A stretch of 64,000 nt of DNA from Tenericutes bacterium HGW-Tenericutes-1 (GCA_002839155.1 PGXM01000002.1:57586-121585); one strand, 5' to 3'; counted from the first letter of the stretch, positions 18,144 through 37,835 are shown. The notes: generated from the sequence alone by a model not told the origin. A program made the numbers and translations.

Positions 18144-19139
18144 TTATTTATCGCCCATCGTCATAGCCATGACTGCTTTCGCCGTATGGAGACGATTTTC
18201 GGCCTCTTGGTAAACAATTGAATGAGGACCATCAATAACACTGTCTTCTACTTCATTACCTCTATCTGCGGGTAATGCGTGCATATAAGAGACATCAGGC
18301 TTCGCTAAAGCTATCATTTCTTCAGTACATTTCCATAATTTATTCTTTTCTAATAAATCATCGATAACCGCTGACGATTGATTTGTCACCCAGCTACCCC
18401 AGTTCTTTGGAATAACGACATCAGCGTCTTTAAACGCTTCTTTCATGTTATGAGTAATTCTAAAAGAACCGCCATTGTCTTTTGCGTTTTTCTTTGCTTT
18501 CTCAATCGCCCAATCAGGGAGATCATACCCTTCTGGATATGCGAGTGTTACGTCCATGCCATAACGTGGGAATAATAAGATTTGAGTTAAAGGTACACTT
18601 ATCGGTTTTTTATGAGATGTTGCATAAGCCCAAATAATAGATACTTTTAAATTCTTTGTTTCTTTTTTTACTTCTTGAATCGTCATTAAATCTGCGAGAC
18701 CTTGCATTGGATGATAGAGATCATCTTGTAAGTTCATAATTGGAACCGTTGACCACTGTGCAAGTTCTCTTAAGTACTTATTTCCCACCTGCCAAAAACA
18801 GTTGCGACAAGCAATGCCATGACCGTAAGAAGAAAGAATAATTGCAGTATCTTTCGCTGATTCACCATGTGATATTTGCATCATGGAGGTATCTAAGAAA
18901 GTCGCGTGTCCACCTAATTGTGCAAGTCCTGATTCCATTGAGTTTCTCGTGCGAGTGGATTGTTCAAAGAACATTAGAAATGCCGTTTTATTGGTTAAAT
19001 AAGGTGTAGGTACATTGTTTTTAAATTCGTATTTCAATGTGTTTGAAACTTCTAGTAATTTGTCGATTTCTTCTTTAGTCCATTCTTCTAGCGTAATAAA
19101 ATGTCTTCCTTTAAATAGTGGTATCATAATATCCCTCAT
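18144..19139 (-). CDS. ygeW: YgeW-like carbamoyltransferase (OTCase/ATCase superfamily, second substrate unknown)
   Basis: 331 aa. Carbamoyl-phosphate motifs STRTR and HPMQ. HALP replaces HCLP, and there is no DxxxSMG ornithine motif. The start ATG overlaps the ygeY-like stop (ATGA). An alternative start at 19127 lies behind GAGGGA. Confidence 0.7.
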
Positions 19140-20347
19140 TTCTTTAGTTTATTGACATAAGTCATTGGAATGCTTGCGTACATCGCAGCAGCTTTAACAA
19201 GTTCATCTTTAAATGTTTTTTCATTCGGTGCATGGGCTTGATCTTCGTGTCCCGGACCAAAGCCGATACAAGGAATGTTATAGCGCCCCATAATTGAGAC
19301 TGCATTCGTCGAAAACGTCCATTTGTCGACTTTTGGTTCTTCTGAAAAAAGTTGTTTGTAACTATCGATTAAAGTTTGACAAGCAATATGTGATTCTTCT
19401 AATACCCACGTTGGGAAATAAGATTTGGTTGGATATACAAGACCGGTATAGGATGGGCGGTCGTAATCGTACATTTCAACTGTCGCATTGACTTTTTTAA
19501 CTGATTCTAAGTTCTTGATTTCTTCAATCGCAGAAAGATAGGTTTCACCCGCGGTTAAGCGTCGGTCAATCGAAATCGTACAGGAATCCGCAACGGCGCA
19601 TCTAGACGGTGAAGTAAAGAAGATTTCACTCACTGTAAGTGAACCTTTTCCTAAGAAATCATCGTGTTTGAGTCGCTTATGTAGTTCTTGTAATTCAAGA
19701 AGAATCGGAGCCATCTTAAAGATTGCATTATCGCCTCTTTCAGGCGCAGACCCATGACAAGAAATGCCTTCAACAATCACTTTGATTTCCATTCGACCGC
19801 GGTGACCGCGGTAGATATTTAAACTGGTCGGTTCGGTAATCACCACGAACTCTGGTTTGATTTTATCTTCTTCTATGATATATTGCCAACAAAGTCCATC
19901 GCAATCTTCTTCTTGAACGGTACCCGTAACTAATAACGTATAATCATCTAATAAATCCAAATCCTTGATGATCTTCGCTGCATACACCATTGAAGCCATT
20001 CCGCCTTCTTGGTCACTGCCGCCACGTCCAACAATGATATTATCATCCTCATAGCCTTGGTAAGGGTCAAAATGCCATAATTTGCGGTCGCCGATGCCCA
20101 CGGTATCGATATGAGCGTCCATTGCAATCAAATGTTTGCCTTTTCCGAGATAACCTAAAATATTGCCCATTGTATCAATTTCGATTCGGTCAAATCCGAC
20201 TTTTTCCATTTCTGCTTTAATGCGTTTAATGACTAATTCTTCATCACAAGATTCTGAAGGAATTGCAATCATATCTCTCAAAAATTTCGAGATATCATTG
20301 CGATAAAATTCAGCTCTTTCATTAATTTTTTGGTAGATTTTGTTCAT
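19136..20347 (-). CDS. ygeY: YgeY-like M20 family metallohydrolase
   Basis: 403 aa. M20/ArgE/DapE layout with [26 protein letters not shown] and a dimerisation insert. The start directly abuts the upstream stop (TAAATG). Confidence 0.75.
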
Positions 20348-22953: not shown

Positions 22954-24669
22954 TTAATCACCTGCTTCTAATGGAACAATCCGATACTCTGCAGTATCGA
23001 ATAAGCCCATGTCAGTTAATTTAAGTTCGGGAATAACCGGTAAAGATAAAAATGCAAGTTGTAAGAATGGATCAACAATTTCGCCACCAACACCCATACT
23101 TCTTACAATCTTTTCCATATTCCTCAGTTTACTTCGGACATATTCAGAAGGTTGTTCGGTCATTATTCCGGCAACTTCTAAAGTGAGTGAATCCATGATT
23201 TTTCCACCTTGGACTAATACAATTCCACCTTGAATTTCATGAATCTTCCTGATAGCCAACATCATATCGTAATCAGAATCACCAATACAAATTAAGTTAT
23301 GGGAATCATGGGCAATCGTCATAGCAACCGCACCATTTTGTAGACCGTAACCTTTGACAAGACCTAGCCCCGTTTTGTTTGTATGATGATGTCTTTCGAT
23401 AACTGCGAGTTTTAATATCTTTGAATTAGGCGTGTTTTGATAAATGCCATTATCAAGTTTTACTTGGATAATCTCTTTAGTCGTCGTAACATTGTTATTA
23501 ACAAGTCCAATAACTTTAACTAAAGGACTTTTTAACTTTAAATTCAGGTTAATTGCTTCTACGTCAAATTTAACTGTATTACAAACATCAGCTTGATTTA
23601 GAATCGGCGTTGTAAATAAGATATTTCCTTTATCAACAATCAGTTGACCATCTTTATAAACTTGTTTTGGCTGAATACAATCAAGCGAATCGAACACAAC
23701 TAAATCTGCTTTATATCCTGGTGCAATCGCACCAACTTGAGGCAATTTATACGCAATAGCGGTGTTAATCGTTGCCATTTGAATCGCCCATATTGGCGAT
23801 ATTCCATAGTTGATTGCGAGATTAATATTATAGTTAATATGTCCTTCGTTTGCGATGTCTTCAGGGTGCTTGTCATCTGTACAGAACAAAATTCTTGAAC
23901 GGTTTTTATCACTAATTCCTGGTAATAAATCTGTTACATTTCGCGTTTGAGATCCTTCACGCAGATGAACATAAAGTCCTCTTCGTGTTTTTTCGATGAG
24001 TTCATCAAGGGTCGATGATTCATGATCTGTTTGAATTCCAGCACTAATATACGCATTGAGCAATTTTGAAGTTAAACCAGGAGCGTGTCCATCGATGGGT
24101 CGATCTTTCATCGCCTTAATTTTATTCAACATGTCGTGGTCGCCCATGATGACTTCCGGATAACTCATCACTTCACCTAGTCCTAAAACGTTGTCACGTT
24201 TTAACATCTTTGTGATGTCTTTAACATTAATGACACTTCCTGATGTTTCGAACTTCGTTGCAGGAACACAAGAGGGAATCATCATATAAACATCGAGTGG
24301 GACTTTTGATGCACTATTCATCATGTAATCAATCCCTTTGACACCTAAAACATTGGCGATTTCATGAGGATCAGCAATGACAGAGGTCGTTCCACAAGGC
24401 AACACTAATTTGGCAAACTCATGTGGAACCATCATTGAAGACTCAATATGGACGTGACCGTCGATAAAACCGGGCGCAACGTACGCGCCTTTCATATCAA
24501 TGATATTCATACCTTTGTATTTACCAATACCAACGATTTGACCATTTTCAATAGCGATGTCACCTTGTTCAATTTCGGTCGTAAAAACGTTGATTATTTG
24601 ACAATTTTTGAGTACGAGTTCAGCTTTTTTTCTTCCTCCAGCAGCTTTTAGAACATTAGTTTTTATCAT
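22954..24669 (-). CDS. ade: adenine deaminase
   Basis: About 571 aa. GFIDGHVHIESS metal site, with the length and C-terminal domain typical of Ade. Start ATG at 24669 sits behind GAGGTG; the longer ORF to 24702 overlaps the upstream gene and lacks an SD. Confidence 0.85.
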   Translation of the reverse strand: MIKTNVLKAAGGRKKAELVLKNCQIINVFTTEIEQGDIAIENGQIVGIGKYKGMNIIDMKGAYVAPGFIDGHVHIESSMMVPHEFAKLVLPCGTTSVIADPHEIANVLGVKGIDYMMNSASKVPLDVYMMIPSCVPATKFETSGSVINVKDITKMLKRDNVLGLGEVMSYPEVIMGDHDMLNKIKAMKDRPIDGHAPGLTSKLLNAYISAGIQTDHESSTLDELIEKTRRGLYVHLREGSQTRNVTDLLPGISDKNRSRILFCTDDKHPEDIANEGHINYNINLAINYGISPIWAIQMATINTAIAYKLPQVGAIAPGYKADLVVFDSLDCIQPKQVYKDGQLIVDKGNILFTTPILNQADVCNTVKFDVEAINLNLKLKSPLVKVIGLVNNNVTTTKEIIQVKLDNGIYQNTPNSKILKLAVIERHHHTNKTGLGLVKGYGLQNGAVAMTIAHDSHNLICIGDSDYDMMLAIRKIHEIQGGIVLVQGGKIMDSLTLEVAGIMTEQPSEYVRSKLRNMEKIVRSMGVGGEIVDPFLQLAFLSLPVIPELKLTDMGLFDTAEYRIVPLEAGD

Positions 24670-24688
24670 AAGACACCTCAGAAATACT

Positions 24689-25528
24689 TTATAGCGTTTC
24701 AATAAAGGCTTTAATCATATTTAAAGCGACTTTATGACGGTACTCTTTCGTGGAGCGTTGATCATCAATCGGTGTAATTAGCGAAGCGTATTTTTTGGTA
24801 TAATCATCGATGTTGTTTTTAATCTCATCAATCGTTTTTCCAACGAATAGTTCATCGGTTTTAATGTTGCTTGCGACTTTGGGACCGACAGCACCGAATG
24901 CAATTCTAAATTTCGTAATGATATTATCTTTGACATTACAAAGAACACAAAGCGAGACTTTTGAAATTGCGTCAGCTTTTCGTCCGCCGACTTTATAAAA
25001 ATTAGCATAATCATGTTCGACATTTGGAATTTTTATCGATCGAATAATTTCGTTTGGTTTTAAGGTTGTTTTCTTAACGCCTATAATAAAATCACAGATT
25101 TTTTCTGTTCTAATTGAATTCGAACTCATAATTTCAACGATTGCATCTAACGCTATTAACGTACAGACTGCATCCGCTGCTGGAGAAGCATTTGCAATAT
25201 TTCCTCCAAGCGTTCCAACATGTCTAATGCCTGGAGCAGCAATTTCAATGATTGTATCTTTCAATACTTTTGGTACTAAAGATGAATTTAACAACGTTTC
25301 GTAGCTAGTAACTGAACCGATTTCGATATAGTCAGGAGTTTCTTCAATAAAGTTCAATTCTGAAAGTTGACTAATAAAAACTAGGGGTTTCACTAGTTTA
25401 GGAACCGTATTTGCCCAAGAACGTGATTGAACCATTAAATCAGTTCCTCCGCACATAACTTGGTAAAGATTTGTTTCAAGTAACTTTAATGTTTCTTCAA
25501 GGGTCGATGGAATATGATGAGTTACCAT
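24689..25528 (-). CDS. xanthine dehydrogenase family FAD-binding subunit (set 2)
   Basis: 279 aa. FAD_binding_5/CO-dehydrogenase flavoprotein layout (GGTDLM, TLGGNIANASPAAD). Confidence 0.8.
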   Translation of the reverse strand: MVTHHIPSTLEETLKLLETNLYQVMCGGTDLMVQSRSWANTVPKLVKPLVFISQLSELNFIEETPDYIEIGSVTSYETLLNSSLVPKVLKDTIIEIAAPGIRHVGTLGGNIANASPAADAVCTLIALDAIVEIMSSNSIRTEKICDFIIGVKKTTLKPNEIIRSIKIPNVEHDYANFYKVGGRKADAISKVSLCVLCNVKDNIITKFRIAFGAVGPKVASNIKTDELFVGKTIDEIKNNIDDYTKKYASLITPIDDQRSTKEYRHKVALNMIKAFIETL

Positions 25529-25995
25529 AATCCTTCCCCCCTTTCAGCCGCTATTTTCACTGCTTCTATAATCATGTTATAACCTGTACAACGACAGAGG
25601 CTACCTGACAAAGCAATCTTGATTTCAAAATCACTGGGAGATGGATTCATATGAAGCAAACTTTCAGTCGCCATCACCATTCCTGGGGTGCAAAAGCCAC
25701 ATTGTACTGCACCAGCGTCGATATAAGCTTGTTCAATGATTTGATATCTTTTTGTGGTTTTAAAGCCTTCAATGGTCATAATCTCTTGATTGATAATATT
25801 ACCTAAAGGTAGTAAACAAGAATTGACAACGTGATGATTAAGAAGAATTGAACAAGCTCCACATTCGCCTTCGCCACAACCTTCTTTAACGCCAATTAAA
25901 TTAAAATCACTTCTTAATACATCGAGTAAGCGTCTAGAAGGGTCTGACTCTATTTCCACGTGTTCTCCATTTAAGATAAATTTAATCATCATCAT
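25522..25995 (-). CDS. (2Fe-2S)-binding subunit of xanthine dehydrogenase family enzyme (set 2)
   Basis: 157 aa. CGEGECGACS plus CGFCTPG...CRCTGY cysteine clusters. Confidence 0.85.
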   Translation of the reverse strand: MMMIKFILNGEHVEIESDPSRRLLDVLRSDFNLIGVKEGCGEGECGACSILLNHHVVNSCLLPLGNIINQEIMTIEGFKTTKRYQIIEQAYIDAGAVQCGFCTPGMVMATESLLHMNPSPSDFEIKIALSGSLCRCTGYNMIIEAVKIAAERGEGLW

Positions 25996-28075
25996 GCATC
26001 AACTCCATCACATATTCCGGTGTTACTGGAATCTTTGTTATATTTTTATTGATCGCCATTTGAATCGCTAGCGCAACAGCCGGTGCGCCGCCGATGAGCG
26101 TCAATTCACCTGCGCCTTTCGCTCCAAACGGACCATATTGATAGGGATTATCTAATATATACGTTGACATCTTTGATACATCAAGGGTAGTTGGAATAAT
26201 ATAATCAGTTAAATTCTTTTGTTTGATAACACCCTTATTCGCTGACATATTTTCTAAATAACCGTATGCAATCCCTTGAACGATACCACCCTCCGCTTGT
26301 CCTTGGATGATTCTTTCATCGATTTCTTTTCCAACATCATAAGCAGAGACCACGTTCAGTATTTTAGTTTGATACGTTATCGGGTCGACTGAAACTTCTA
26401 CGACACTTACACCCCAGGAGTAAGCAGGATAAGCATCACCTTTGAATTTGGATTCATCATATTTAATGTAACTAGGTTGAACATAACGCTTAGTTACTAT
26501 TTGTTCAAGATTATCTATCCAATTTTCTTTTAATTCTTTCGCTGCTCTTGCGACTAAACCGCCGACAATCATAATAGTTCTCGACGCAACTGTAGGTCCT
26601 GAATCAGGAACATTGTCAGTATCTGGATAATTGAAAATACAGCGTTCAATCGGAATCTCGAGGATTTGAGAAACAATTTTTGGAAGCGTCGTTTTGATTC
26701 CCTGACCCATGTCTACGGCCGCAACTAAGATATGAACAAGTCCATCTTTTGTTTTTAATAATTTGACTTGAGCTTTAATGTGTGTCGATTCACCAGAACC
26801 TGTGAATCCACACCCATGAAGAAAGATACTCATGCCAATGCCTTTATAGATACCTGGCTGAGAATAAGCCAGTGCTTTTGAATGATATTTCGATTTTTCT
26901 GTCGCAACGCGAATTAAATCCTCTAAAAGAATCGGATCTCTAAACGTACCAGACGTAGATGTTTTATCGCCTTGTCTCGCGATATGCCGCATTCTAAATG
27001 CAAAAGAATCCTGATGAGTTTCTTTGGCAATATGATGCATAAACATTTCTATGGCAAAAAACATTTGCGGGGCACCAAAACCTCTAAACGCCCCATTAGG
27101 AACCGTATTGGTTTTAATTACATGACCTAATACTTCAAGATTTTCAAAGGTATACGCTCCCGATACAGCAATCATCGCTCTAGATAAAACGACACTTGAT
27201 AAACCGGTATAAGCCCCACCATCGATGGCGATATCAGCACTGATTGAAGTGACGTTATTCAATTCATTGATAGCTGCTTTTAAAGTAATTCTTGAGGGAT
27301 GCCTTTTCGTTGTAGATAGAATATCTTCTTCGCGTTCAAATATGAGTTTAATCGGCTTATGAACTTTCTTAACAGCGACGGCTAATTGACACGCTATCAA
27401 AGAAGGATATTCTTCTTTACCACCAAAAGCCCCCCCAACCGCTGCTTGAATGACTCGCACTTGATCACTTGAACAACCTAATGCATAAACAACCGCATTT
27501 TTTACATAATAAGGGCATTGAATCGAACCAATCAAAGTCACTTTTTCATCTTCTTCATAGACAATGAATCCTTGAGGTTCGATATAAGCTTGTTCCTGAA
27601 GCCCTGTATGATACGTCATTTCAATGACTTTTTCAGCATTTTTAAAAGCCCGTTTAGGATTTCCTTTTTTGAAGTGGTAAGCGATGGTTTTTTGACTTTC
27701 ATCAAAAACGCCATTTTCTTCGCTATACTCTATTTTGATTTCATCAACAATTTGCTTGATGATTTCCATATCTGACCCAACGACTAACATGATGGGTTCA
27801 TTGAGGTGATTGATTTCACCGGTAGAATAATAAGGCATATCCTCAAAAATGATTTTAACGATGTTTTTTGACAAGATATCTTCTCTTGACACAGTAAAAT
27901 ACCCCTCAGGCAGTGGAGGAATTGTTATCGACTTGATGGTGCCTTTAACGATTTTACTTCGAATGGTTTTAGCATACATCATGTCTTTCATATGAATATC
28001 AGAGACGTATAACGCTTGTCCACTGATTTTTTCTTTAGCATCGATTTTAGGAATTGATTTAGTAATATCCGTGAT
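25982..28075 (-). CDS. xanthine dehydrogenase family molybdopterin-binding subunit (set 2), probably initiated at a non-AUG codon
   Basis: GGAFGGKEE, GAFRGFGAPQ and GAKGAGEL motifs. The frame stays open 28 codons upstream of the first ATG (27991) and encodes ITDITKSIPKIDAKEKISGQALYVSDIH, a typical XDH N-terminus. GGGAGG lies 5 nt before ATC at 28075. Confidence 0.75.
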   Translation of the reverse strand: MTDITKSIPKIDAKEKISGQALYVSDIHMKDMMYAKTIRSKIVKGTIKSITIPPLPEGYFTVSREDILSKNIVKIIFEDMPYYSTGEINHLNEPIMLVVGSDMEIIKQIVDEIKIEYSEENGVFDESQKTIAYHFKKGNPKRAFKNAEKVIEMTYHTGLQEQAYIEPQGFIVYEEDEKVTLIGSIQCPYYVKNAVVYALGCSSDQVRVIQAAVGGAFGGKEEYPSLIACQLAVAVKKVHKPIKLIFEREEDILSTTKRHPSRITLKAAINELNNVTSISADIAIDGGAYTGLSSVVLSRAMIAVSGAYTFENLEVLGHVIKTNTVPNGAFRGFGAPQMFFAIEMFMHHIAKETHQDSFAFRMRHIARQGDKTSTSGTFRDPILLEDLIRVATEKSKYHSKALAYSQPGIYKGIGMSIFLHGCGFTGSGESTHIKAQVKLLKTKDGLVHILVAAVDMGQGIKTTLPKIVSQILEIPIERCIFNYPDTDNVPDSGPTVASRTIMIVGGLVARAAKELKENWIDNLEQIVTKRYVQPSYIKYDESKFKGDAYPAYSWGVSVVEVSVDPITYQTKILNVVSAYDVGKEIDERIIQGQAEGGIVQGIAYGYLENMSANKGVIKQKNLTDYIIPTTLDVSKMSTYILDNPYQYGPFGAKGAGELTLIGGAPAVALAIQMAINKNITKIPVTPEYVMELMHDDD

Positions 28076-28089
28076 AAAAACCTCCCTTG

Positions 28090-29166
28090 TTATTCAACGA
28101 CCAAAGCCTTTGTTGGACATTTAGAAACGCACAATCCACATCTAAAGCATTGATTTGGATCAATTGTAATAATACCTGGAAATTCAATGGCGAAATAGGG
28201 ACAAACATCTTTACATATCAAGCATTGAATACATTTTTCTTTGATGAGGCTAGGGACGGTTCCAGTATACTCACAAGTCTTGTCTAAAACGATTTTTTGA
28301 ACTTCTTCTACGGAAGAAAAACCATATTTTTCTAAAGCTTTTGGAAGGTCTTCTATGATTTTATGATACAGTTGTTTTCCTTTAAGTAATGCACCCGAAA
28401 GCATTTGAACGCCACTTGCACCCGCAAGTAAAAACTCAATAACATCATCGGCGCTTTTGACACCACCAGTCCCAATGATGGTTAAAGTAGGTTCGGCTTG
28501 TTTGATTTTATAGACTGTCGCTAACGCTAAATTCTTGATGACGGGTCCACTCGTCCAGACAAAACCAGAATCATTACCGTACTCTATTTTTCGTTTTTCA
28601 ATATTGATTTTCATAGTCGGTCCTAAGGAATTAATCGCAACAATCCCATTCGCACCAGCATTTTTAATCGCTTTTGCGAATAATTCAGGACTGGGAATGT
28701 GAGGACTGATCTTCATAAATATCGGTTTTGTTGTATGGGAACGAATCATCTTGACAATGCCTTCGATCACCGATAGATTTGTTCCTACATAATGTGTCGA
28801 TACTTCAAATGCATCAGCGAATTGATCTAGTAATGGAATCAAAATTTCCATATCAGACTCTGAATATCCAACTGAGACAATTAACGGTCGATTCTTGATT
28901 TTCATAAAATCAGGCAATATTTGATGAACCCATTGTTCAAGTGGTAATTCACTCCAAAGTTCTGAATTCATGATATATTCTTTATCCCCATAAATACAAG
29001 GTTTCGGAATTACAGGCAACTTTGTAGAAATCGTTTTGGTCACGACTGCGCCGCATCCAGCATCTTGCATAAATTTAAGTTTTTGATAATCCCCGACAAG
29101 CGGCCCAGAAGCCGGCATTAAAGGATTTTCTAAGATAAGTCCGTTAAATGTTGTTTTTAAATTCAT
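28090..29166 (-). CDS. dihydroorotate/dihydropyrimidine dehydrogenase (PreA)-like FMN protein with C-terminal 2x[4Fe-4S] ferredoxin domain
   Basis: 358 aa. TIM-barrel motifs NPLMPASGP, MKISPH, GTGGV, LAGASGVQ. C-terminal CIQCLICKDVCP and CFRCGLCVSKCP. Confidence 0.7.
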   Translation of the reverse strand: MNLKTTFNGLILENPLMPASGPLVGDYQKLKFMQDAGCGAVVTKTISTKLPVIPKPCIYGDKEYIMNSELWSELPLEQWVHQILPDFMKIKNRPLIVSVGYSESDMEILIPLLDQFADAFEVSTHYVGTNLSVIEGIVKMIRSHTTKPIFMKISPHIPSPELFAKAIKNAGANGIVAINSLGPTMKINIEKRKIEYGNDSGFVWTSGPVIKNLALATVYKIKQAEPTLTIIGTGGVKSADDVIEFLLAGASGVQMLSGALLKGKQLYHKIIEDLPKALEKYGFSSVEEVQKIVLDKTCEYTGTVPSLIKEKCIQCLICKDVCPYFAIEFPGIITIDPNQCFRCGLCVSKCPTKALVVE

Positions 29167-30470
29167 TATACATTCTCCTTTTTAAGACGATTCCATAAAA
29201 TTTCAGCTTGATTTTCGGCTGATGCGTAAAGCGTATCGATATTCTTATCTAACTGATAATCCTTTAAAACTTGAATGCCACTAACAAAAACATGTCTTGG
29301 TTTGAAAGAATTAAACAACCCAAAGAATAAATGTCCAAATGCATTAGAGTGATTCAAGGGTGTTGGTGGGATATACGGTATAATTTGAAAATCCGCTTCA
29401 TATTTGACATCAATTCTACCCAGTTTAACATCAAATAATTGACTTGCGTACTGATAATTATTCTCAATGATATCTAGTAAATCGTTGAGTGTAAAGGCTG
29501 TCGGTGAATTAGTTTGATGATGCATCAAATAATAGATCGCTTGAAATTCATTCACAATCGATGAGCCAAGACCATCATTACCGACAAGAACACAAATTCC
29601 TTTTTCTTTCATTTTCATCATATCGGGCAATCCAACCGCATTATTCATATTCGATGTCAAATTAACGACAACTTTACAATTTTTCTCTTTGATGATATCC
29701 ATATCTTTTTCACTAATATGAACACAGTGAATTAACAAAGAATTTTCTAGTAATAATCCATGACGGTTTAGTCTTTCAATGACGGATTCATGATATTGAT
29801 TCATTGAATCGAGCTCATCTAGTTGACTTTCAGAGACATGAATATGGATGGGATTCATTCCAAGATTATCTTTAACTTTTTTTAAGGTTTCCTCTGATAA
29901 GGACATTGATGCATGAAGCCCAAATAATCCTCTTGAATGGGATGTATGATTGTTTAATGCAAATTCTGCATTTTCTCTAATGCACATATCGACATCAAAT
30001 CGATCACTGGTTTCAAAACAGAAACATCCTCGTAATTTCAAGGTATCCACAATCGCTTTTTTCACCGAGTTTAACGAATTATATATGTCTAATTTAGACG
30101 CATGATGATCAATAATCGTCGTTATTCCATTTTTAATGCAATCACTGCCGTAGACAATCCCCGAGCAATAACTGATATCATTATCAATTTGCGAGTCTAA
30201 TTTCCACCATAATTGATCTAATATTTCTTGAAAATTAGAAGGATTAAAAGGAAGAGATAATCCTCTCGCAAATGTTGAATAAATATGTGTATGTGCTAAG
30301 ACAAATGAAGGCATGACAATATGATTTTCGCAGTCGATTAATTCATAGTTATGATTAATAAACTCTTTCATAAGTCCAACTTCAAATATTTGTTTATCAA
30401 ATAAGACATAAGCATTTTTTAAGAAACGATCTCGATCATATAAAGTCGCATTGATTAACGCTTTAACCAT
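29166..30470 (-). CDS. ssnA: SsnA-like / chlorohydrolase-type amidohydrolase
   Basis: 434 aa. LAHTHIY (HxH), HVSES and GNDG motifs of the ATZ/TRZ-SsnA aminohydrolase group. Confidence 0.65.
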   Translation of the reverse strand: MVKALINATLYDRDRFLKNAYVLFDKQIFEVGLMKEFINHNYELIDCENHIVMPSFVLAHTHIYSTFARGLSLPFNPSNFQEILDQLWWKLDSQIDNDISYCSGIVYGSDCIKNGITTIIDHHASKLDIYNSLNSVKKAIVDTLKLRGCFCFETSDRFDVDMCIRENAEFALNNHTSHSRGLFGLHASMSLSEETLKKVKDNLGMNPIHIHVSESQLDELDSMNQYHESVIERLNRHGLLLENSLLIHCVHISEKDMDIIKEKNCKVVVNLTSNMNNAVGLPDMMKMKEKGICVLVGNDGLGSSIVNEFQAIYYLMHHQTNSPTAFTLNDLLDIIENNYQYASQLFDVKLGRIDVKYEADFQIIPYIPPTPLNHSNAFGHLFFGLFNSFKPRHVFVSGIQVLKDYQLDKNIDTLYASAENQAEILWNRLKKENV

Positions 30471-30471
30471 C

Positions 30472-31773
30472 TTAATCCACTCCTTTGATTAACATGCCTT
30501 GATGAGGGATAAATCGTGAATTTTGAACAATAATTTTGCCTCTTAAAACCGTTCTAACCACTTTTGTCGTCACTCTCATGCCTAAATAAATATCGTTATC
30601 TGCCGCAGAGTGACTGTCGCGAATGGTAAAAGGAGGGGTCATTTCATAAAAACAAAAATCTGCGTCCATTCCGGCTTTTATCAGCCCTTTTGTCGGTAAT
30701 TGATAAATTGAAGCGACATTTTTCGTCATTTTATCAATAATTTTATCGCCAAACATCGAATGCATGATTGAAAATGAATGTTCAATGCCACCAATCCCTA
30801 AAGGCATTTGATTTAATAAAGTCTTGTGTTTGAGAGTAATGTCATAAGAACAATGATCTGTCCCTATCGTGTTTATATAATCAATATTATTTTTGAGTTT
30901 CAATTGATCATTCTTGGTTCGTAAAGGCGGAGCCATCGTATATAAATACCCATCACTTTTAGACAATGCATCTTCTGTAAAAACAAAATAATGCGGACAA
31001 CTTTCAATTAAAAACTTTTGATTAATTAGATCAGGATATTTAGCTTTTATTTTCTCGATTGTTTCTCCCGAAGTTAAATGGACCATATAAAATGTACCAC
31101 CTGTTTCTTTGACAAAACCAGCTATTTTCATGGCTTCTTCAGTTTCTGCAATGACAGGTCGAGATAGTGGCAAGAGTTGGAAAGGATAATCAGGATTCAA
31201 ATCAATTAATTGGTCATTTTCAACATGTCCGATTAATATAAAAGGATGATACGTCGTTAACTTGAGAAGCGTCTTGATGGCATCATCATCGGTACGGCGG
31301 TGTGAATCTGAATAAGTCGTGAATATCTTAAGCGATTTTAAATGAAGTTGTTCCATCCGGAATACAAAGTCTTCTAACGATTGATTTGGTTCTCGTAATG
31401 TTGCGTGAAACTGATAATCAATCGCACACTCTTTTGCTTCATTACAACGTTTTAGATAGTTTTGATTTAATTCATCGACATTTCTCGACGGATCTAAGAA
31501 ATCGATAATTGTTGTGACTCCACCAAACGCAGCTGCGATGGAGCCTGATAGAAAATCATCCTTTGATCTTCTTTCTCCGGTTCCTAAAGCGAAATGGACG
31601 TGGGGATCAATAATCCCTGGAATCACGTATTCATTGGTCGCATTGATGACTTCTGAAGCCTCAAAACGAGATGCTGAAAGACAAGCAATTTTACCACCTA
31701 ATACGTAAATATTTAGACGGTGAAATGCTTCGTCAATCCACACTTTCCCATTTATAATCGCCAAATCATACAT
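30472..31773 (-). CDS. dihydropyrimidinase/hydantoinase-type cyclic amidohydrolase (HyuA-like)
   Basis: 433 aa. PGIIDPHVHF, SLKIFTTY (candidate carboxylated Lys), GHVEN and GTDHCS metal-ligand motifs. Confidence 0.75.
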   Translation of the reverse strand: MYDLAIINGKVWIDEAFHRLNIYVLGGKIACLSASRFEASEVINATNEYVIPGIIDPHVHFALGTGERRSKDDFLSGSIAAAFGGVTTIIDFLDPSRNVDELNQNYLKRCNEAKECAIDYQFHATLREPNQSLEDFVFRMEQLHLKSLKIFTTYSDSHRRTDDDAIKTLLKLTTYHPFILIGHVENDQLIDLNPDYPFQLLPLSRPVIAETEEAMKIAGFVKETGGTFYMVHLTSGETIEKIKAKYPDLINQKFLIESCPHYFVFTEDALSKSDGYLYTMAPPLRTKNDQLKLKNNIDYINTIGTDHCSYDITLKHKTLLNQMPLGIGGIEHSFSIMHSMFGDKIIDKMTKNVASIYQLPTKGLIKAGMDADFCFYEMTPPFTIRDSHSAADNDIYLGMRVTTKVVRTVLRGKIIVQNSRFIPHQGMLIKGVD

Positions 31774-31786
31774 GAGACCACTTCCT

Positions 31787-32257
31787 TTATGTCAGGATTT
31801 GATATGACTTAATCTTGAACTTCTCTAGAAACATTGGGATAAATTGGTCCCGAATCGTGAAATAACAATCTCTTTCTGAATATAACATCTGAATGATTGT
31901 TTGATAAAATCCATATCCATCGATTTCAAGTTTTCCAACCTCATCTAAAAATAGGGATTTTACATGGTTATTAATCATCATTAACATTTCATTTTCCACC
32001 CAATGAAAGGCTTCATCATTAAAGACATAGGGGCCTAACTCTTGAGTATAATTAAACTGATGATTAAAATAGGGTTTTGTCATTGCTAATAATTTCGTTT
32101 CTTTCGTCGATAATTTCATAACATCGAACTTAACAACATTTCCCTGATCCATTGTTTTTAGAGAAACGAATCCATCTGAGGATAAAATCTTATTCGCTAT
32201 TTCTATTGTTTTGGTCGTTTTTTGGTGATTAATCTTACCAGTAATGAGGTACACCAT
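31787..32257 (-). CDS. THEP1/DUF2478-like small NTPase homologue with degenerate Walker A
   Basis: 156 aa. ITGKINHQKTT aligns to ITGxxGxGKTT (the G before K is Q). Walker B-like LFLDEVGKLE. Overlaps the xdhC-like gene by 23 nt. Confidence 0.5.
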   Translation of the reverse strand: MVYLITGKINHQKTTKTIEIANKILSSDGFVSLKTMDQGNVVKFDVMKLSTKETKLLAMTKPYFNHQFNYTQELGPYVFNDEAFHWVENEMLMMINNHVKSLFLDEVGKLEIDGYGFYQTIIQMLYSERDCYFTIRDQFIPMFLEKFKIKSYQILT

Positions 32258-33071
32258 CGGTGGTCTCCCGCATATGGTTATGATTTATCTTGCCATTACT
32301 AACCGCCAATATTTCAGAACTTATAGAGATAGCAATCTCAGAAGGAGATCCTCCCCCTAAATTTAAGCCTATTGGAGAATAAAAGTTTGATAGATCAACT
32401 TCTTGACCAAATTGTTCATACGTTTTATCCAAGTAATCTCGTAATTTTATTGGAGAACATAACATTCCCATATATTTAGGCTTTAATTTTAACTCAAGAA
32501 TTTTATTAATGACGTGATAATCATGTAGATGTGCTGGCGTACAAACCACCACAAAACTATCTTCTTTAATTGAGTACTTTTCAATGTACTCAACGAATCC
32601 CATATCATAGACTAAATCAGCGTTTTTAAAAGCTTTGGCTACATCTTTTCTTTCATCAATAACCGTAATATGAAACGGCATGGTTTTTAATACATTCGCC
32701 AATGCTTGACCGACATGTCCTGCCCCAAAGATATACACATATTCTTTCGCTCCTAAATATTCGTACATCAAAGATACTTTACCGCCACAGGCCATCGGTA
32801 AAGTAATGGTATCAGGATAGACTTTTCCTTCTGCGAGTAAATATTTTTCATATCGATTTTCGCGTTTTTGGAGAAGTTCTTTACATAATTCGCGGGCATG
32901 AAATTCAAGGGCTCCGCCACCAACCGTACCATACGCTTCTAAATTCTCGCCAACAATCATTTTTTTACCTACTTCAACGGGTCCTTCACCGGTCTTTTCA
33001 ATGACAGTAACCATCATTAAAGGAATTCCACGACGTTGTAAGTCAATCAGTTTTTCATAGAGGTTTTCCAT
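32235..33071 (-). CDS. XdhC/CoxI family molybdenum-hydroxylase maturation protein
   Basis: 278 aa. N-terminal XdhC_CoxI region (MVTVIEKTGEGP, GTVGGGALE) and C-terminal Rossmann IFGAGHVGQALA. Confidence 0.8.
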   Translation of the reverse strand: MENLYEKLIDLQRRGIPLMMVTVIEKTGEGPVEVGKKMIVGENLEAYGTVGGGALEFHARELCKELLQKRENRYEKYLLAEGKVYPDTITLPMACGGKVSLMYEYLGAKEYVYIFGAGHVGQALANVLKTMPFHITVIDERKDVAKAFKNADLVYDMGFVEYIEKYSIKEDSFVVVCTPAHLHDYHVINKILELKLKPKYMGMLCSPIKLRDYLDKTYEQFGQEVDLSNFYSPIGLNLGGGSPSEIAISISSEILAVSNGKINHNHMRETTDGVPHYW

Positions 33072-33090
33072 AGAGACTCCTAAGTAATTG

Positions 33091-33720
33091 TTATAATAAG
33101 ATAGTTAATATTACCGCCACGGCTAACGATACAAGTGAAAGAATTGGTGAAATAGGGACCATTGGTTTTTTTAATTTATTCGGTAGCTCAATGATAAATA
33201 ACAAGCCAATGCTCATCATAGCGGACAGTAGCCCAGATACAACGCTAAATGATAAAATGGCTTCTAGCGATCCAATTTGAACAGCGACAAAACCTGTCGT
33301 TATTGCTTGAATTCCCATATAACCTAAGAAGAGCATTCTCCAAGTGATACTTGCGATTGATATAATCGCTGTCTTTATTACCCAGTTGGACTTGACAAAA
33401 CTTCTCATTACAACCATGACAACCAATGCTTCAAGCAGAATTGAAATCATGGGATTAATAACCTTAAAAATATTTGTAACAGGCAGCAAGAAGTTTACAG
33501 CTTTAATCATCGCTGCTATAACACCAACGCCTAATACTGCATAATTAGAATTGGTTTGTTTATAAGTTTTATACAAAATAAGTGATGCAAAAGGAAACAA
33601 AATCGTACCGGCAATTAATGCAGGTAAAAAGTGAAGGACATAACCGACACTTGCTTCAACAATGCCCCATATTGCGCCATAAAAAACAATTACTGATATA
33701 GTTTTTAAATTAATTTTCAT
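33091..33720 (-). CDS. six-TM membrane protein (possibly ECF-type S component or other small-solute carrier)
   Basis: 209 aa and entirely hydrophobic. The start overlaps the stop of the set-1 Mo subunit by 11 nt. The family is not recognised with confidence. Confidence 0.45.
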   Translation of the reverse strand: MKINLKTISVIVFYGAIWGIVEASVGYVLHFLPALIAGTILFPFASLILYKTYKQTNSNYAVLGVGVIAAMIKAVNFLLPVTNIFKVINPMISILLEALVVMVVMRSFVKSNWVIKTAIISIASITWRMLFLGYMGIQAITTGFVAVQIGSLEAILSFSVVSGLLSAMMSIGLLFIIELPNKLKKPMVPISPILSLVSLAVAVILTILL

Positions 33721-36028
33721 GATTTTTTCTCCTTAGTTCCATTAATATTTTTTCAGGGGTTGCTGGTAATGTTTTGATTCTAACGCCGCAAGCATTAAAT
33801 ATGGCGTTTGTGATAGCAGCTGGAGGTGTATCAATGCCGATTTCACCGACAGATTTAGCACCAAATGGACCGCTTGGTTCATGACTAATTGCAAATTCAG
33901 TAATGAGTTCTGGAGTTTCATTTCTTGAAGGAATGCGGTAACTCATGAAATCGTTAGAAATGAGTTTACCTTGTGAAGAAACTTTGACATCTTCATAGAG
34001 TGCCATACCCATTCCTTGAACTATCGCACCTTCAACTTGCCCTTTAGCAAGTTTTGGATTAATCGTAACACCACAATCTACAACACTGACATATTTGTTA
34101 ACTTTCACTTCGCCGGTTTCTGTATCTAAATCAATTTCGGCAAAACCTGCCATGAAAGGCGGTGGTGATTTGTGTCCAACATAACTTTCTGTAACCATCA
34201 ATTGTTTTTGATCATGATTATAATATAAACGGTTTGATAGAGCTTTTAGTGTAATCGAATCTTTCGTTTTGATTTGCGTGAATACTTCACCATTAAATTC
34301 AACCAGTATGATATCACAATTGAAATAGTTCGCTGCTTCTTCAACAAGTTTTGATTTCATGGTTTTAGCAGCCTTTAAGACAGCATTACCAGAAACGAAT
34401 GTTGTGGAAGATGCATATGCCCCAACATCAAAAGGAGTTAAGTCAGTATCAGATGAATAGACAATCACTTTATCAACAGTAGTCATTAACTCTTCGGCGG
34501 CAATTTGAGTCAAAATCGTATCTGATCCTTGACCAATTTCAGTGGCACCGACAAGTAAATTATAAAAACCATCGTCATTCAGTTTGATTGTTGCAGCTCC
34601 CATATCGATATAAGGAATGCCTGATCCCTGCATCGCAATGGCCATTCCAACACTTCTAACAGTATGATCATCTATTTGAATTCTCGGATACGTTTTTTGC
34701 CAATTGATTAATTCTAATCCTCGGTTTAGACAAAATTCCAGTTTACATGTTTCCATGTTCATTGCAGTTCCTTCAGTGCCTTCACCCATGATTGCGAAAA
34801 TTGGACTAGTTTCTGTTTCCTTAATCATGTTTATTTGTCGGAAAGCAATCGGACTCATCTTCAATTTTTCACACAACATATCTACTGCAGATTCAAGGGC
34901 AAAATTCCCTTGAATTGCACCATATCCTCTAAATGCACCTGCTGGTGTATGATTCGTATATACGACATGACCATGGAAACGAACAGAGTCAACTTTATTG
35001 TAGAGTGGTAAGACTTTTGATCCTGTTACCATAAAGACTGTTAATGCATGTTCTCCATAAGCCCCAGTGTCTGATAACACATAACAATCAATGGCTTTTA
35101 AATGACCTTCTAAGTCAGCTCCTAAGGTCATATCAATACGCATAGGGTGTCTTGAATAACTTGATTCGAAAACTTCTTTACGGGTGTAGACTAGTTTGGC
35201 CGGTTTCCCAGTTTTAATGGTAACCGCACTACAGATAATTTCACCATGAATCGCTTGTTTACCGCCAAAACCTCCACCCACTCTCGGTTTAATAACCCGA
35301 ATTCTTGAGAGTGGAAAATTAAGCGCTTGACTAATGATTCTTCGCACATGAAAAGGCGTTTGAGTCGAAGAATATAACACCAAACGATTTTGATAATCAA
35401 ACCTGCTATTCACCGCATGAGGCTCCATCATCGCGTGGGCTTGTGCTTGCGTATAAAATGATTCTTTAATGACTACGTCACATTGAGCTAATGATTTTTC
35501 AACGTTTCCAATATGCATTTGATAACTAGCTGCAATATTTTTCTTTGGTTCAAAACCAATCGGAAACATTTCATGAATTTCTGGTTCTGGATGAATGATA
35601 CTTTGATGATTCATCGCAGACTCAAAGTCTAAGACGCTTTCAAGTATTTGATATTCAACTTTGATTAAAGCGAGCGCTTTTTCAGCGGTAACTTCATCAA
35701 TGGCCGCAACACATAATACTTCATCGCCAACATAGCGGACATATTCATCAAAAACAAATTTATCATGAGGAGATGGTTCGGGATATCCTTGGCCTGCTCT
35801 TGTAAAAGGTCTACGATCAAAGTCTTTGTAAGATAAAATACATTCAACGCCTTTTAATTTTAAAGCTTCACTGTCATTAATCGATACAATTTTTGCATAC
35901 GGATGAGGACTTCTCAACACCTTGATAATCAATGAATTTTTATCTGAAAAATCATTGGTATACCCAGGTTTTCCCATCATCAATCCTTGACCATCAATCG
36001 ATGGAGTAATGATATTGACTGCTTTCAT
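33710..36028 (-). CDS. xanthine dehydrogenase family molybdopterin-binding subunit (set 1)
   Basis: About 772 aa from MKAVNIITPSIDGQG. Motifs GGGFGGKQA, GAFRGYGAIQ, GAKSVGEIG. ATG at 36028 overlaps the upstream TGA (ATGA), so the longer ORF to 36091 is rejected. Confidence 0.85.
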   Translation of the reverse strand: MKAVNIITPSIDGQGLMMGKPGYTNDFSDKNSLIIKVLRSPHPYAKIVSINDSEALKLKGVECILSYKDFDRRPFTRAGQGYPEPSPHDKFVFDEYVRYVGDEVLCVAAIDEVTAEKALALIKVEYQILESVLDFESAMNHQSIIHPEPEIHEMFPIGFEPKKNIAASYQMHIGNVEKSLAQCDVVIKESFYTQAQAHAMMEPHAVNSRFDYQNRLVLYSSTQTPFHVRRIISQALNFPLSRIRVIKPRVGGGFGGKQAIHGEIICSAVTIKTGKPAKLVYTRKEVFESSYSRHPMRIDMTLGADLEGHLKAIDCYVLSDTGAYGEHALTVFMVTGSKVLPLYNKVDSVRFHGHVVYTNHTPAGAFRGYGAIQGNFALESAVDMLCEKLKMSPIAFRQINMIKETETSPIFAIMGEGTEGTAMNMETCKLEFCLNRGLELINWQKTYPRIQIDDHTVRSVGMAIAMQGSGIPYIDMGAATIKLNDDGFYNLLVGATEIGQGSDTILTQIAAEELMTTVDKVIVYSSDTDLTPFDVGAYASSTTFVSGNAVLKAAKTMKSKLVEEAANYFNCDIILVEFNGEVFTQIKTKDSITLKALSNRLYYNHDQKQLMVTESYVGHKSPPPFMAGFAEIDLDTETGEVKVNKYVSVVDCGVTINPKLAKGQVEGAIVQGMGMALYEDVKVSSQGKLISNDFMSYRIPSRNETPELITEFAISHEPSGPFGAKSVGEIGIDTPPAAITNAIFNACGVRIKTLPATPEKILMELRRKNHEN

Positions 36029-36477
36029 GATTGATCCTCCAAATAATGAAGAATTGCAATGTGTTGTGCTTGATATCCTGTACAACGACATAAATTACCA
36101 ACTAAGTAACTTTTGATTGTCTCTATCGTTGGATCCTTCAATTCTTTCTTCATCGCGTAAACCGTTAATGCCATTGATGGATTACAAAATCCACATTGAT
36201 CTGCACCTTCTAATCCGAAATAATGTGCTAATTTCTCAGCTTCTTTTTGAATTCCTTCAACGGTAGTGATTGATTTCCCTTCAAGACGAACGGTTAATAA
36301 AGAACAGGATGGAACTGGCTTACCCTCTAAAAGTACAGTACAAACACCACATGACGTCGATTCGCAACCACGTCTGACCGAAACAACATTATTTTTTTGT
36401 AACGTATCTAATAAAAAATCTCCAGGTTCAACTTGTAATGTTTTTGCTTCTCCGTTTAAGAATAAATTAACTAACAT
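36025..36477 (-). CDS. (2Fe-2S)-binding subunit (set 1)
   Basis: 150 aa. CESTSCGVCT plus CGFCNPS...CRCTGY. Confidence 0.85.
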   Translation of the reverse strand: MLVNLFLNGEAKTLQVEPGDFLLDTLQKNNVVSVRRGCESTSCGVCTVLLEGKPVPSCSLLTVRLEGKSITTVEGIQKEAEKLAHYFGLEGADQCGFCNPSMALTVYAMKKELKDPTIETIKSYLVGNLCRCTGYQAQHIAILHYLEDQS

Positions 36478-37270
36478 GATTGATCACCGCCTTCAAACCT
36501 CTTTTGATATATACGAAAGCAAGGGATTTACGATACTCTTTTGTCCCTCTGAAATTGGATGAAAACGATAATTCGTCAGCTGCGAGTTCACAGGTTTTTT
36601 CGATGTCCTGTTCAGTAATATTCTTTAGTTGATTAATATAATTCATCGCACTTAATGCGAAAGCAGCCGTCCCAGGACGCGCTCCAACAACGATAGAGTA
36701 ACGATTATTATTGTTCGTTACTGCAACATTAATAATCGCGAAATCGAGCGAAGTCCTCGACACTTTGTGATAGTATCCCAACGTTTGATTTTTCTCAATA
36801 ATGATGGATAATAAAATATCCTTAACTGGATAATTTGTTGTTAAAAACGTCGATAATTTTAGTTTACCTTTTGAATGAAAAACCAACGTAACATCAATTG
36901 CTAGTAAAGCCGTTAACAAATCAGAAAAAGAATATTTACCCACAATCGTGCCACCAATCGTCGCTAGGTTTTTCACGGTTATTCCCATGATGGATTGACT
37001 GGCTTTGGCGATAATGCCGCCAAAATATTGCTTGAGAAGAGCACTTTCTTCTAAATCATGGAGTGTGCACATCGCTCCAATTTCAATATAATTTGGATAT
37101 TCTTTGATTTTCGAATCAATTAATGTCGACAACTCAATGGCAGTATCAATTTTCTTTAATGTGTTTTTAATCCAAGCTCCTCCGGCAAAAACATGATTAT
37201 CAGGGCTCTGATTCAATACCATGATTGCTTCATCTAAAGATTTCGGTACTAAATAATTTCTAATTTCCAT
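36467..37270 (-). CDS. FAD-binding subunit (set 1)
   Basis: 267 aa. CO-dehydrogenase flavoprotein-like (AGGAWIKN, TIGGTIVG). Confidence 0.8.
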   Translation of the reverse strand: MEIRNYLVPKSLDEAIMVLNQSPDNHVFAGGAWIKNTLKKIDTAIELSTLIDSKIKEYPNYIEIGAMCTLHDLEESALLKQYFGGIIAKASQSIMGITVKNLATIGGTIVGKYSFSDLLTALLAIDVTLVFHSKGKLKLSTFLTTNYPVKDILLSIIIEKNQTLGYYHKVSRTSLDFAIINVAVTNNNNRYSIVVGARPGTAAFALSAMNYINQLKNITEQDIEKTCELAADELSFSSNFRGTKEYRKSLAFVYIKRGLKAVINHVS

Positions 37271-37274
37271 ATCA

Positions 37275-37835
37275 TCACTCCTTTGTTAAGACTAATTGTT
37301 CTAAATCTTTTAATGTATCAATATCCTGTAAAATTCCTGCATCGTTGACAGTAACTTCTTCATAGAAATATCTGTTTCTAAATACTTTCAAATTAGAATC
37401 AAGTGGTTCTTTGCGTAAATCATCAATTAATGATTTTTTGATGAATAATGGATGTCCTTTTTTATTTTGATATACCGGAACTGAAATAAATGCTTTGTTA
37501 TCTAACAAGCTTTCATATGTGTTTGAGAGTACATTTGGATAATCACCAGGAATGATAAAAAAATCTTCAGTCACATGATTAACTCCAGCTAATACGGATG
37601 TAAACATCCCCTGATGATAAATTTCATTATAAATAACACTCACTTTAGGTATTTTTTCAAGAATCGGTAAAAGTTCTTGATGATAATGACCAGTAACGAC
37701 AAATATATCAGTGACAAAAGGAGTCATTGATTTTATACAATGACAAATGAGTGGTTCTCCAAGATATGAAAGCGTCATTTTGTTTTGGCCAATTCTGCTA
37801 GAATAGCCACCAGCCAATATGATCCCTTGTGCCAT
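37275..37835 (-). CDS. MobA/MocA-like molybdenum cofactor nucleotidyltransferase
   Basis: 186 aa. N-terminal GIILAGGYSSRIGQNKM (LAGGxSxRxG). First gene of the operon, with SD AAGAGGTG. Confidence 0.75.
   Translation of the reverse strand: MAQGIILAGGYSSRIGQNKMTLSYLGEPLICHCIKSMTPFVTDIFVVTGHYHQELLPILEKIPKVSVIYNEIYHQGMFTSVLAGVNHVTEDFFIIPGDYPNVLSNTYESLLDNKAFISVPVYQNKKGHPLFIKKSLIDDLRKEPLDSNLKVFRNRYFYEEVTVNDAGILQDIDTLKDLEQLVLTKE

Follow-up and report, generated by a model that had tools for sequence, protein, structure and literature searches.

In a 64,000-nucleotide stretch of the genome of Tenericutes bacterium HGW-Tenericutes-1 (GCA_002839155.1, PGXM01000002.1:57586–121585; hereafter the window, from whose first letter all positions are counted), two three-subunit molybdenum (Mo) hydroxylases, set 1 and set 2, are encoded within one operon. 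Observations of gene content, active-site residues, phylogeny and co-occurrence lead us to favour, with moderate confidence, the view that they supply the two purine-ring redox steps in an Izemoplasmatales form of the reductive urate (2,8-dioxopurine) pathway, in which set 2 would be a xanthine dehydrogenase (XDH) and set 1 the enzyme that reduces urate. The source organism is a wall-less marine bacterium of the Izemoplasmatales, and a whole-genome search of its assembly (G000; 1.97 Mb in 26 contigs, 93% complete) returned set 1 and set 2 as the only Mo hydroxylases encoded. We take the two sets to be the pathway’s redox pair because their 18-gene operon, in a tightly packed run of genes at 17.3–37.8 kb of the window that are all on the minus strand, also holds SsnA, HyuA, a UacX-like reductase, YgeY and a carbamoyltransferase, which clustered with a Mo enzyme are the combination by which a reductive urate cluster is recognized.

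The anaerobic reductive urate pathway was described and reconstituted in two papers of 2025 (Liu et al., bioRxiv 10.1101/2025.04.24.650524; Li et al., Life Metab, PMC12507026). Urate is converted to 2,8-dioxopurine by a Mo enzyme, XdhAC (2,8-dioxopurine dehydrogenase, DOPDH) in C. sporogenes and XdhD–YgfM in E. coli (Liu et al.; Li et al.), the latter reducing urate with NADH, its flavin adenine dinucleotide (FAD) subunit included (Li et al.). The product is reduced by YgfK or, in C. difficile, by the PydA-like UacX (Li et al.), and the later steps fall to SsnA, HyuA, YgeW/UacY, YgeY and YgeX (Liu et al.; Li et al.), while a separate XDH channels hypoxanthine and xanthine into urate (both papers). 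XDH genes beside purine deaminases have already been noted in Izemoplasmatales (Wasmund et al. 2021), and in transcriptomes of two cultured relatives, Xianfuyuplasma coldseepsis zrk13 and Hujiaoplasma nucleasis zrk29, an XDH-rich 18-gene cluster of the same annotated content is induced by rich medium or by DNA/RNA (PMC10470597, PMC8397711); none of these three reports connects the cluster with the 2,8-dioxopurine pathway or distinguishes its two enzymes.

Gene calls and Pfam searches bear out the layout given in a preliminary description of this DNA, with the two sets in opposite gene order. Set 1 runs from 37270 to 33710 as FAD subunit (36467–37270), 2Fe–2S subunit (36025–36477, a separate polypeptide) and Mo subunit (33710–36028, 772 amino acids), the ATG of the last (36028) overlapping the 2Fe–2S stop codon as ATGA; set 2 runs from 28075 to 24689 as Mo subunit (25982–28075, 697 amino acids from an ATC at 28075), 2Fe–2S subunit (25522–25995) and FAD subunit (24689–25528). 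All six subunits match the expected Pfam domains with E-values of 1e-8 to 1e-78, and both sets have the full complement of the xanthine oxidase family: hammerhead, MoCoBD_1 and MoCoBD_2 in the Mo subunits, Fer2 (PF00111) and Fer2_2 (PF01799) in the 2Fe–2S subunits, and FAD_binding_5 (PF00941) and CO_deh_flav_C (PF03450) in the FAD subunits. The two sets are deeply diverged paralogues, with only 25% identity, and very probably act on different purines.

Active-site residues were mapped from HMMER, MAFFT and HHalign sequence alignments against bovine xanthine oxidase, with chain numbering taken from the HMMER output; under this numbering, 22 known active-site residues fall into place, including Q767, K771, F798, G799, E802, L873, S876, R880, R912, F914, F1009, T1010, V1011, L1014, A1078, A1079 and E1261. 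The motifs quoted earlier are all present (GGGFGGKQA, AFRGYG and GAKSVGEIG in set 1; GGAFGGKEE, AFRGFG and GAKGAGEL in set 2). HMMER aligns GGAFGGKEE to bovine GGGFGGKET (E802) and GAKGAGEL to ASKAVGEP, so that the catalytic Glu had been correctly placed (E1261; E657 in set 2, E729 in set 1), and Q767 likewise has an equivalent in both sets (Q186 and Q223). The Gln that set 1 carries where bovine XDH has E802 also stands where it had been put: Q258 pairs with E221 of set 2 in the MAFFT alignment and by HHalign (probability 100%), and neither alignment moves it to another structural position. By contrast, the Arg of AFRG[FY]G, formerly equated with R880, was mis-assigned because it is bovine R912 (R367 in set 1, R331 in set 2), with F914 falling on the aromatic residue two positions beyond it (Y369 and F333). 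The true R880 lies in bovine SIMERALF; its counterpart in set 2 is R299 (VVLSRAM), and in set 1 it is V334 (FMVTG) by MAFFT and a gap by HHalign profile–profile alignment. Set 2 also retains the L873 equivalent.

The Glu-to-Gln difference had been interpreted as a change that alters purine specificity, an interpretation that does not survive comparison with relatives. The Gln is invariant in the XdhA/XdhD superclade (88 of 88 sequences), the two E. coli enzymes among them (GGGFGNKQD in XdhA, GGGFGSKQD in XdhD), and on these alignments it is a character of the clade, not a peculiarity of set 1. Because it also occurs in E. coli XdhA, whose annotation is putative xanthine dehydrogenase, Gln alone is no predictor of lost xanthine specificity. 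What stands of the earlier proposal, that set 2 is a true XDH and set 1 a purine paralogue of altered specificity, is the deep divergence of the sets and the canonical residues and phylogenetic position of set 2; its foundation in the Gln does not.

Placing both Mo subunits on a phylogeny, as had been suggested, puts that of set 1 with E. coli XdhD and that of set 2 on the wing of bovine xanthine oxidoreductase (XOR) and XdhB. In a maximum-likelihood tree of 30 sequences (LG+C20), set 1, a ‘Mid’ group of sequences and E. coli XdhD form a clade with support of 100/99 that is sister to the XdhA clade, and forcing set 1 to group with XdhA, which would make it an XdhA orthologue, costs 83 log-likelihood units and is rejected by the approximately unbiased (AU) test (p = 1.3e-7). 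BLAST scores agree for the Mo subunit (473 bits and 36% identity to E. coli XdhD versus 387 bits to XdhA) and for the FAD subunit (68 bits to YgfM versus 41 bits to E. coli XdhB), and the gene order FAD–FeS–Mo is that of ygfM–xdhD with the FeS–Mo fusion split. Like E. coli XdhD, set 1 has His, Thr and Tyr at positions 873, 876 and 914, a shortened 1009–1011 loop, Gln at the E802 position, a YgfM-like FAD gene upstream and a surrounding SsnA/HyuA/YgeY cluster. Both also carry a Glu-bearing insertion (11–13 residues in XdhD; 13 residues, SPIFAIMGEGTEG, encoded at 34769–34807, in set 1), and E416 of set 1 (codon 34781–34783) aligns with XdhD E606, the residue that is missing in XdhA and was singled out as likely to orient urate (Li et al., PMC12507026). 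In alignments, no such insertion is present in XdhA, set 2, bovine xanthine oxidase or 4-hydroxybenzoyl-CoA reductase. The E. coli XdhABC type, represented by NF043082, resembles set 1 in having Gln at the E802 position and no Arg at R880 and differs from it in lacking the insertion and in its separate place in the tree. We read set 1, from this kinship, as a split three-polypeptide 2,8-dioxopurine dehydrogenase related to YgfM–XdhD.

Several observations weigh against this assignment of set 1. Set 1 shares just 36% identity with E. coli XdhD, the FeS domain is fused in XdhD and a separate gene here, and R367 is an Arg where E. coli-type XdhD has Gln (R912 position). The highest NCBIfam score of the Mo subunit is with NF043082 (620 bits, cut-off 780), ahead of TIGR03313 (553.9 bits against a cut-off of 1101.9, for a model that spans the fused FeS domain); the FAD subunit reaches 69.8 of the 241.5 bits required by TIGR03312, and indeed every subunit of both sets scores under every NCBIfam equivalog cut-off. 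The role of E606 itself rests on a Boltz-1 model, not on mutagenesis (Li et al., PMC12507026). Finally, the ‘Mid’ group, the nearest sister of set 1, has neither the insertion nor an SsnA context, and a clade of set 1 and XdhD that leaves ‘Mid’ out is rejected (p = 0.002), so function varies inside the clade. The ‘Mid’ loci themselves are FAD–FeS–Mo(–MocA) sets with approximately 46% identity to set 1 (L030, 7275–11310; L031; L032, 8089–12236), whose surroundings include a xanthine/uracil-type nucleobase permease and a FecCD-type ABC transporter but not SsnA.

A substrate other than a purine, such as an aromatic acyl-CoA or a pyridine, might be considered for set 1, given that its nearest solved structure is 4-hydroxybenzoyl-CoA reductase (1rm6_A, the best Protein Data Bank match, at 329 bits versus 150 bits for bovine XDH). 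We regard this as very improbable: NCBIfam models of XdhA and XdhD score 620, 577 and 554 bits versus 507 bits for 4-hydroxybenzoyl-CoA reductase, and the operon context is wholly one of purine and urate catabolism. Set 1 was accordingly rejected as an enzyme of the 4-hydroxybenzoyl-CoA reductase type on its lower hidden Markov model score and on the insertion, which is missing there.

Set 2 has the residues expected of an XDH, with E802, R880 and E1261 represented by E221, R299 and E657 and F914 by F333. It shares Q767, E802, L873, R880, R912, F914 and E1261 with bovine XOR and XdhB-type enzymes, with which it also groups on one wing of the tree; it differs from them in its low identity, its short hammerhead domain and a Val in place of A1078. 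Because its Mo subunit scores approximately 280–300 bits on every XDH model, below the cut-offs of pucD, xdhB and XdhA, it is nobody’s close orthologue; its best matches among solved structures are bovine xanthine oxidase and mouse AOX3 (172–179 bits), and its FAD subunit is nearer to E. coli XdhB (94 bits) than to YgfM (41 bits). A wider tree unites set 2, with support of 100, with Mo–FeS–FAD trios of Oscillospiraceae and Spirochaetaceae that share its odd loop, HG[CG][GA]FTG[SN]GE; this group joins Asgard homologues and then bovine xanthine oxidase and XdhB-like enzymes (FGISF motif) in one wing with support of 95 and long branches. On contigs of both families, set 2-like trios lie directly upstream of clear ygfM–xdhD orthologues, and one such trio sits inside an SsnA/YgfK/YgeY/YgeW cluster. 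With an adenine deaminase gene adjoining it, we read set 2 as a probable xanthine dehydrogenase.

The residues do not settle the matter, since E802 and R880 are both retained by the clostridial DOPDH type and thus cannot by themselves identify set 2 as an XDH. C. sporogenes DOPDH catalyses the step that we propose for set 1; TIGR03311 members from Bacilli genomes, used here as its stand-ins, keep E802, R880, F914 and E1261 as set 2 does. The type differs from the present enzymes in belonging to another clade than either set, in its FeS–Mo fusion, in having no FAD subunit and in its dependence on selenium. Its published signature, F1009V with A1078T/S (Liu et al. 2025, bioRxiv 10.1101/2025.04.24.650524), is matched by the stand-ins, with A1078T in the alignment and F1009V when read ungapped, and by neither set: the two positions are Gly and Val in set 2 and a gap and Tyr in set 1. 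For set 2 this comparison carries a caveat that again weighs against us. Its unusual loop HGCGFTGSGEST (26783–26818), at bovine 1003–1014, reads CGFTGSGEST over 1005–1014; because it has three extra residues, F1009 and T1010 are without a sure counterpart, being Gly and Ser when read ungapped, with an F–T pair two residues upstream, next to the three-residue insertion, and the loop alignment is uncertain. As a TIGR03311-type DOPDH, set 2 was rejected: it forms a separate clade without the F1009V/A1078T signature. Scores on TIGR03311 were 287–290 bits against a cut-off of 830, and neither set has 2Fe–2S and Mo subunits fused.

These shared residues would nevertheless be expected if the roles were reversed, with set 2 the urate/2,8-dioxopurine enzyme, like clostridial DOPDH, and set 1 an XdhA-like xanthine dehydrogenase. 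In keeping with such an exchange, annotated XDHs of the XdhA type share the Gln of set 1 and its lack of R880, and set 2 adjoins the UacX-like reductase, a user of 2,8-dioxopurine. We nonetheless judge a reversal unlikely: grouping set 1 with XdhA fails the AU test given above, the XdhD insertion and a FAD subunit resembling YgfM are both found in set 1, set 2 lacks the DOPDH signature and stands outside the TIGR03311 clade, and Spirochaetaceae encode set 2-like trios alongside true XdhD orthologues.

A further point against a functional XDH in set 2 is the start of its Mo gene, whose conserved N terminus has no ATG, GTG or TTG and begins with ATC at 28075. From an in-frame TGA at 28094–28096 to the next ATG, at 27991, no ATG, GTG or TTG occurs, while the homologous codon is ATG in all seven orthologues with an alignable start region, one of them from a genome of the same genus. 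Starting at 27991 would drop 28 hammerhead residues and lower the PF01315 score from 42 to 25 bits, and the domain exceeds its threshold only when read from 28075. Non-canonical initiation, an error in the assembly or incipient decay of the gene could each account for the ATC. That set 2 is impaired or decaying in this genome seems improbable to us, given an otherwise intact frame of 697 codons, full conservation of the active-site residues and a strong AAGGGAGG site 5 nucleotides upstream of the ATC, besides the possible assembly error. ATH codons are, moreover, able to initiate translation at a low rate.

If set 2 is the XDH and set 1 the urate reducer, substrates, direction of catalysis and electron partners would be as follows. 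Adenine would be deaminated to hypoxanthine by the adjacent adenine deaminase; set 2 would hydroxylate C2 and C8, taking hypoxanthine and xanthine to urate by means of its canonical Glu/Arg/Glu triad and releasing four electrons through the 2Fe–2S and FAD centres. Set 1 would run the chemistry of the family in reverse, stripping urate of its 6-oxo group to yield 2,8-dioxopurine with two electrons received via its YgfM-like FAD subunit, as E. coli XdhD–YgfM does with NADH, and the Glu on its XdhD-type insertion would help to orient urate. The UacX-like enzyme would take two further electrons, after which SsnA, HyuA, the carbamoyltransferase, YgeY and pyridoxal phosphate (PLP) enzymes would open the ring and finish its breakdown; with carbamate kinase, the carbamoyltransferase would yield ATP.

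The preliminary description had instead compared the sets to the separate purine hydroxylase and XDH of purinolytic clostridia; on such a model both would be oxidative purine hydroxylases of different site preference, and there would be no urate-reducing step. Self and Stadtman reportedly separated two such enzymes from C. purinolyticum in 2000. The FAD subunits of both sets are typical of NAD-linked dehydrogenases, and an adenine deaminase within the operon would suit two oxidative enzymes. The analogy has, however, been overtaken, because the 2025 pathway of XDH plus 2,8-dioxopurine dehydrogenase fits both the operon context and the kinship of set 1 to E. coli XdhD. A full downstream set from 2,8-dioxopurine is present (UacX-like, SsnA, HyuA and YgeY), the genome encodes no further Mo enzyme that could produce this compound, and XdhD–YgfM has a FAD subunit yet reduces urate; we therefore give a purely oxidative pair little credence.

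Selenium is a point on which the Izemoplasmatales version would depart from the published one. For the urate pathway of gut clostridia, every library strain with the cluster had SelD and YqeB/YqeC, and a selD mutant lost DOPDH activity (Liu et al. 2025, bioRxiv 10.1101/2025.04.24.650524). In G000 (93% complete), searches for selD, the YqeB maturation domain (TIGR03309) and YqeC (TIGR03172) were all negative, and in contrast to the E. coli XdhD system the operon has no neighbouring yqeB/yqeC and a UacX-like gene in place of YgfK. Of 301 evenly sampled genomes of the class, 36, belonging to four families, carry set 1-type genes (at least 64% identity); selD and TIGR03309 were each found in 0 of the 81 sampled genomes of those families, the 36 set 1 genomes included, whereas families bearing TIGR03311 do have both. 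The absence of selD is negative genomic evidence from genomes that are not all complete, which counts against the argument. Because the lineage lacks selD and the YqeB domain, and G000 also yqeC, both enzymes would probably be matured with an ordinary sulfido cofactor, by the MocA-like and XdhC-like proteins and perhaps also the NTPase and membrane protein of the operon. We tentatively suggest, as a possibility that we hold less firmly than the roles of the two sets, that the pathway is selenium-free in Izemoplasmatales and their allies, using two FAD-bearing sulfido Mo enzymes and an internal NAD(H) loop in which the electrons released by set 2 are spent by set 1 on urate. In Bacilli clusters with the selenium trait, adenine and guanine deaminase genes are accompanied by a third Mo hydroxylase (L019, 11413–14951; L028, 4555–8129; L025, 5151–8725), arranged as FAD, FeS and Mo with the Mo subunit split in two genes in L019 and L028 and a single 747-residue gene in L025, and with W873, N876 and K880 in place of Leu, Ser and Arg.

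The remaining genes of the operon lie around and between the two sets. Four of them flank set 1 only, as had been noted. The first gene of the operon encodes a MocA-like molybdenum cofactor cytidylyltransferase (37275–37835; PF12804, 1e-31; TIGR03310, 119 bits) and holds the same first position throughout the syntenic loci. Downstream of the set 1 Mo gene lie a 209-residue membrane protein (33091–33720), an XdhC-like cofactor insertion factor (32235–33071; PF02625 and PF13478) with 27% identity to residues 2–252 of E. coli YqeB, in its N-terminal half only, and an NTPase_1 (THEP1-like) protein (31787–32257; PF03266, 1.5e-12). The membrane protein gave no Pfam or NCBIfam match even at E = 1; it is polytopic, and orthologues with 38–60% identity stand between the set 1 Mo and XdhC-like genes in most syntenic loci, none being detected in L021 or L026. 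Between the sets are a HyuA-like cyclic amidohydrolase (30472–31773; TIGR02033, 212 bits; 30% identity to E. coli HyuA), the SsnA-like aminohydrolase that marks the reductive urate pathway (29166–30470; NF005540, 373 bits, under the cut-off of 444; TIGR03314, 338 bits) and the UacX-like reductase, with a dihydroorotate-dehydrogenase fold (PF01180) and two 4Fe–4S motifs (Fer4), in the place of YgfK (28090–29166).

Set 2 is followed by the adenine deaminase (22954–24702; TIGR01178, 623 bits, over cut-off), two PLP enzymes, ThrC-like and CysK-like, where YgeX stands in E. coli (20348–22961; conserved across syntenic loci), a YgeY hydrolase (19136–20347; TIGR03526, 707 bits, over cut-off; 70% identity to E. 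coli YgeY), an OTC/YgeW-like carbamoyltransferase (18144–19139; 37% identity to YgeW) and a protein of unknown function of 251 residues (17314–18069). YgeX is absent from the gene set of the operon, and the ThrC-like/CysK-like pair may replace or supplement that diaminopropionate ammonia-lyase. The ThrC-like enzyme, with an N-terminal zinc ribbon, and the 452-residue CysK-like enzyme also occur as a pair in urate clusters from several phyla, where YgeX is often missing (L019, L024, L027, L056, L058, L072 and L074). The carbamate kinase of G000 is on a separate contig (C23:3612–4532); in operons of ‘Clostridia bacterium’ metagenome-assembled genomes (MAGs; L041, L042 and L045) carbamate kinase follows the carbamoyltransferase, at the place of the 251-residue protein here. 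No guanine deaminase was found in G000 at the TIGR02967 cut-off, the best matches being SsnA and a 424-residue amidohydrolase outside the window (C20:39523–40677), and two nucleobase permeases are encoded on other contigs. The gene order of the operon is the same, with small omissions only, in all 16 copies examined, which come from Izemoplasmatales, two more families of the class and several ‘Clostridia bacterium’ MAGs; close homologues carry the labels Izemoplasmatales, Izemoplasma or Mycoplasmatota.

Beyond the class, a scan of species-representative genomes yielded a sample of 80 loci of the XdhD superclade from many phyla, among them Proteobacteria, Spirochaetes, Chloroflexi, Elusimicrobia, Bipolaricaulota, Verrucomicrobia and Asgard archaea. 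The GEG/EG core of the Glu-bearing insertion is present in every one of the 80, and SsnA lies within the 10-kb flanks of 29. The loci fall into two subtypes, with Gln (E. coli-like) or Arg (like set 1) at the R912 position, each of which occurs fused or split and beside SsnA/YgfK; many SsnA-linked members in other phyla are likewise split and have the Arg. The closest relatives of set 1 outside Izemoplasma (46–49% identity; Thermotogae, Bipolaricaulota, Acidimicrobiia and Verrucomicrobia) have separate FAD and FeS genes alongside and stand next to SsnA and YgfK, and on Elusimicrobia contigs a set 1-like enzyme is paired with a canonical XDH. The recurring design is an XdhD-type enzyme together with an XDH of some lineage. 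Two Asgard-labelled contigs (L084 and L098, from Hermodarchaeota/Hodarchaeota MAGs) encode set 1-like (44–46% identity) and set 2-like (33–34%) three-subunit enzymes along with MocA and an XdhC-like gene.

These comparisons correct a tempting rule, in that a Gln in place of E802 is the mark of an entire clade, not of a switch of substrate, and they offer the Glu-bearing insertion as a candidate marker of XdhD-type urate reductases across many phyla. If the selenium-free scheme with its NAD(H) loop is right, set 2 would represent a new clade of xanthine dehydrogenases, and adenine fermentation would be redox-neutral up to ring opening. A version of the pathway widespread among genomes that lack selD would demonstrate that its chemistry has no intrinsic need of selenium, which would matter for the engineering of urate-lowering probiotics because neither a selenium supply nor the YqeB/YqeC machinery would be necessary. 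Such a version would also bear on how DNA-degrading bacteria recycle nucleic acids in marine sediment.

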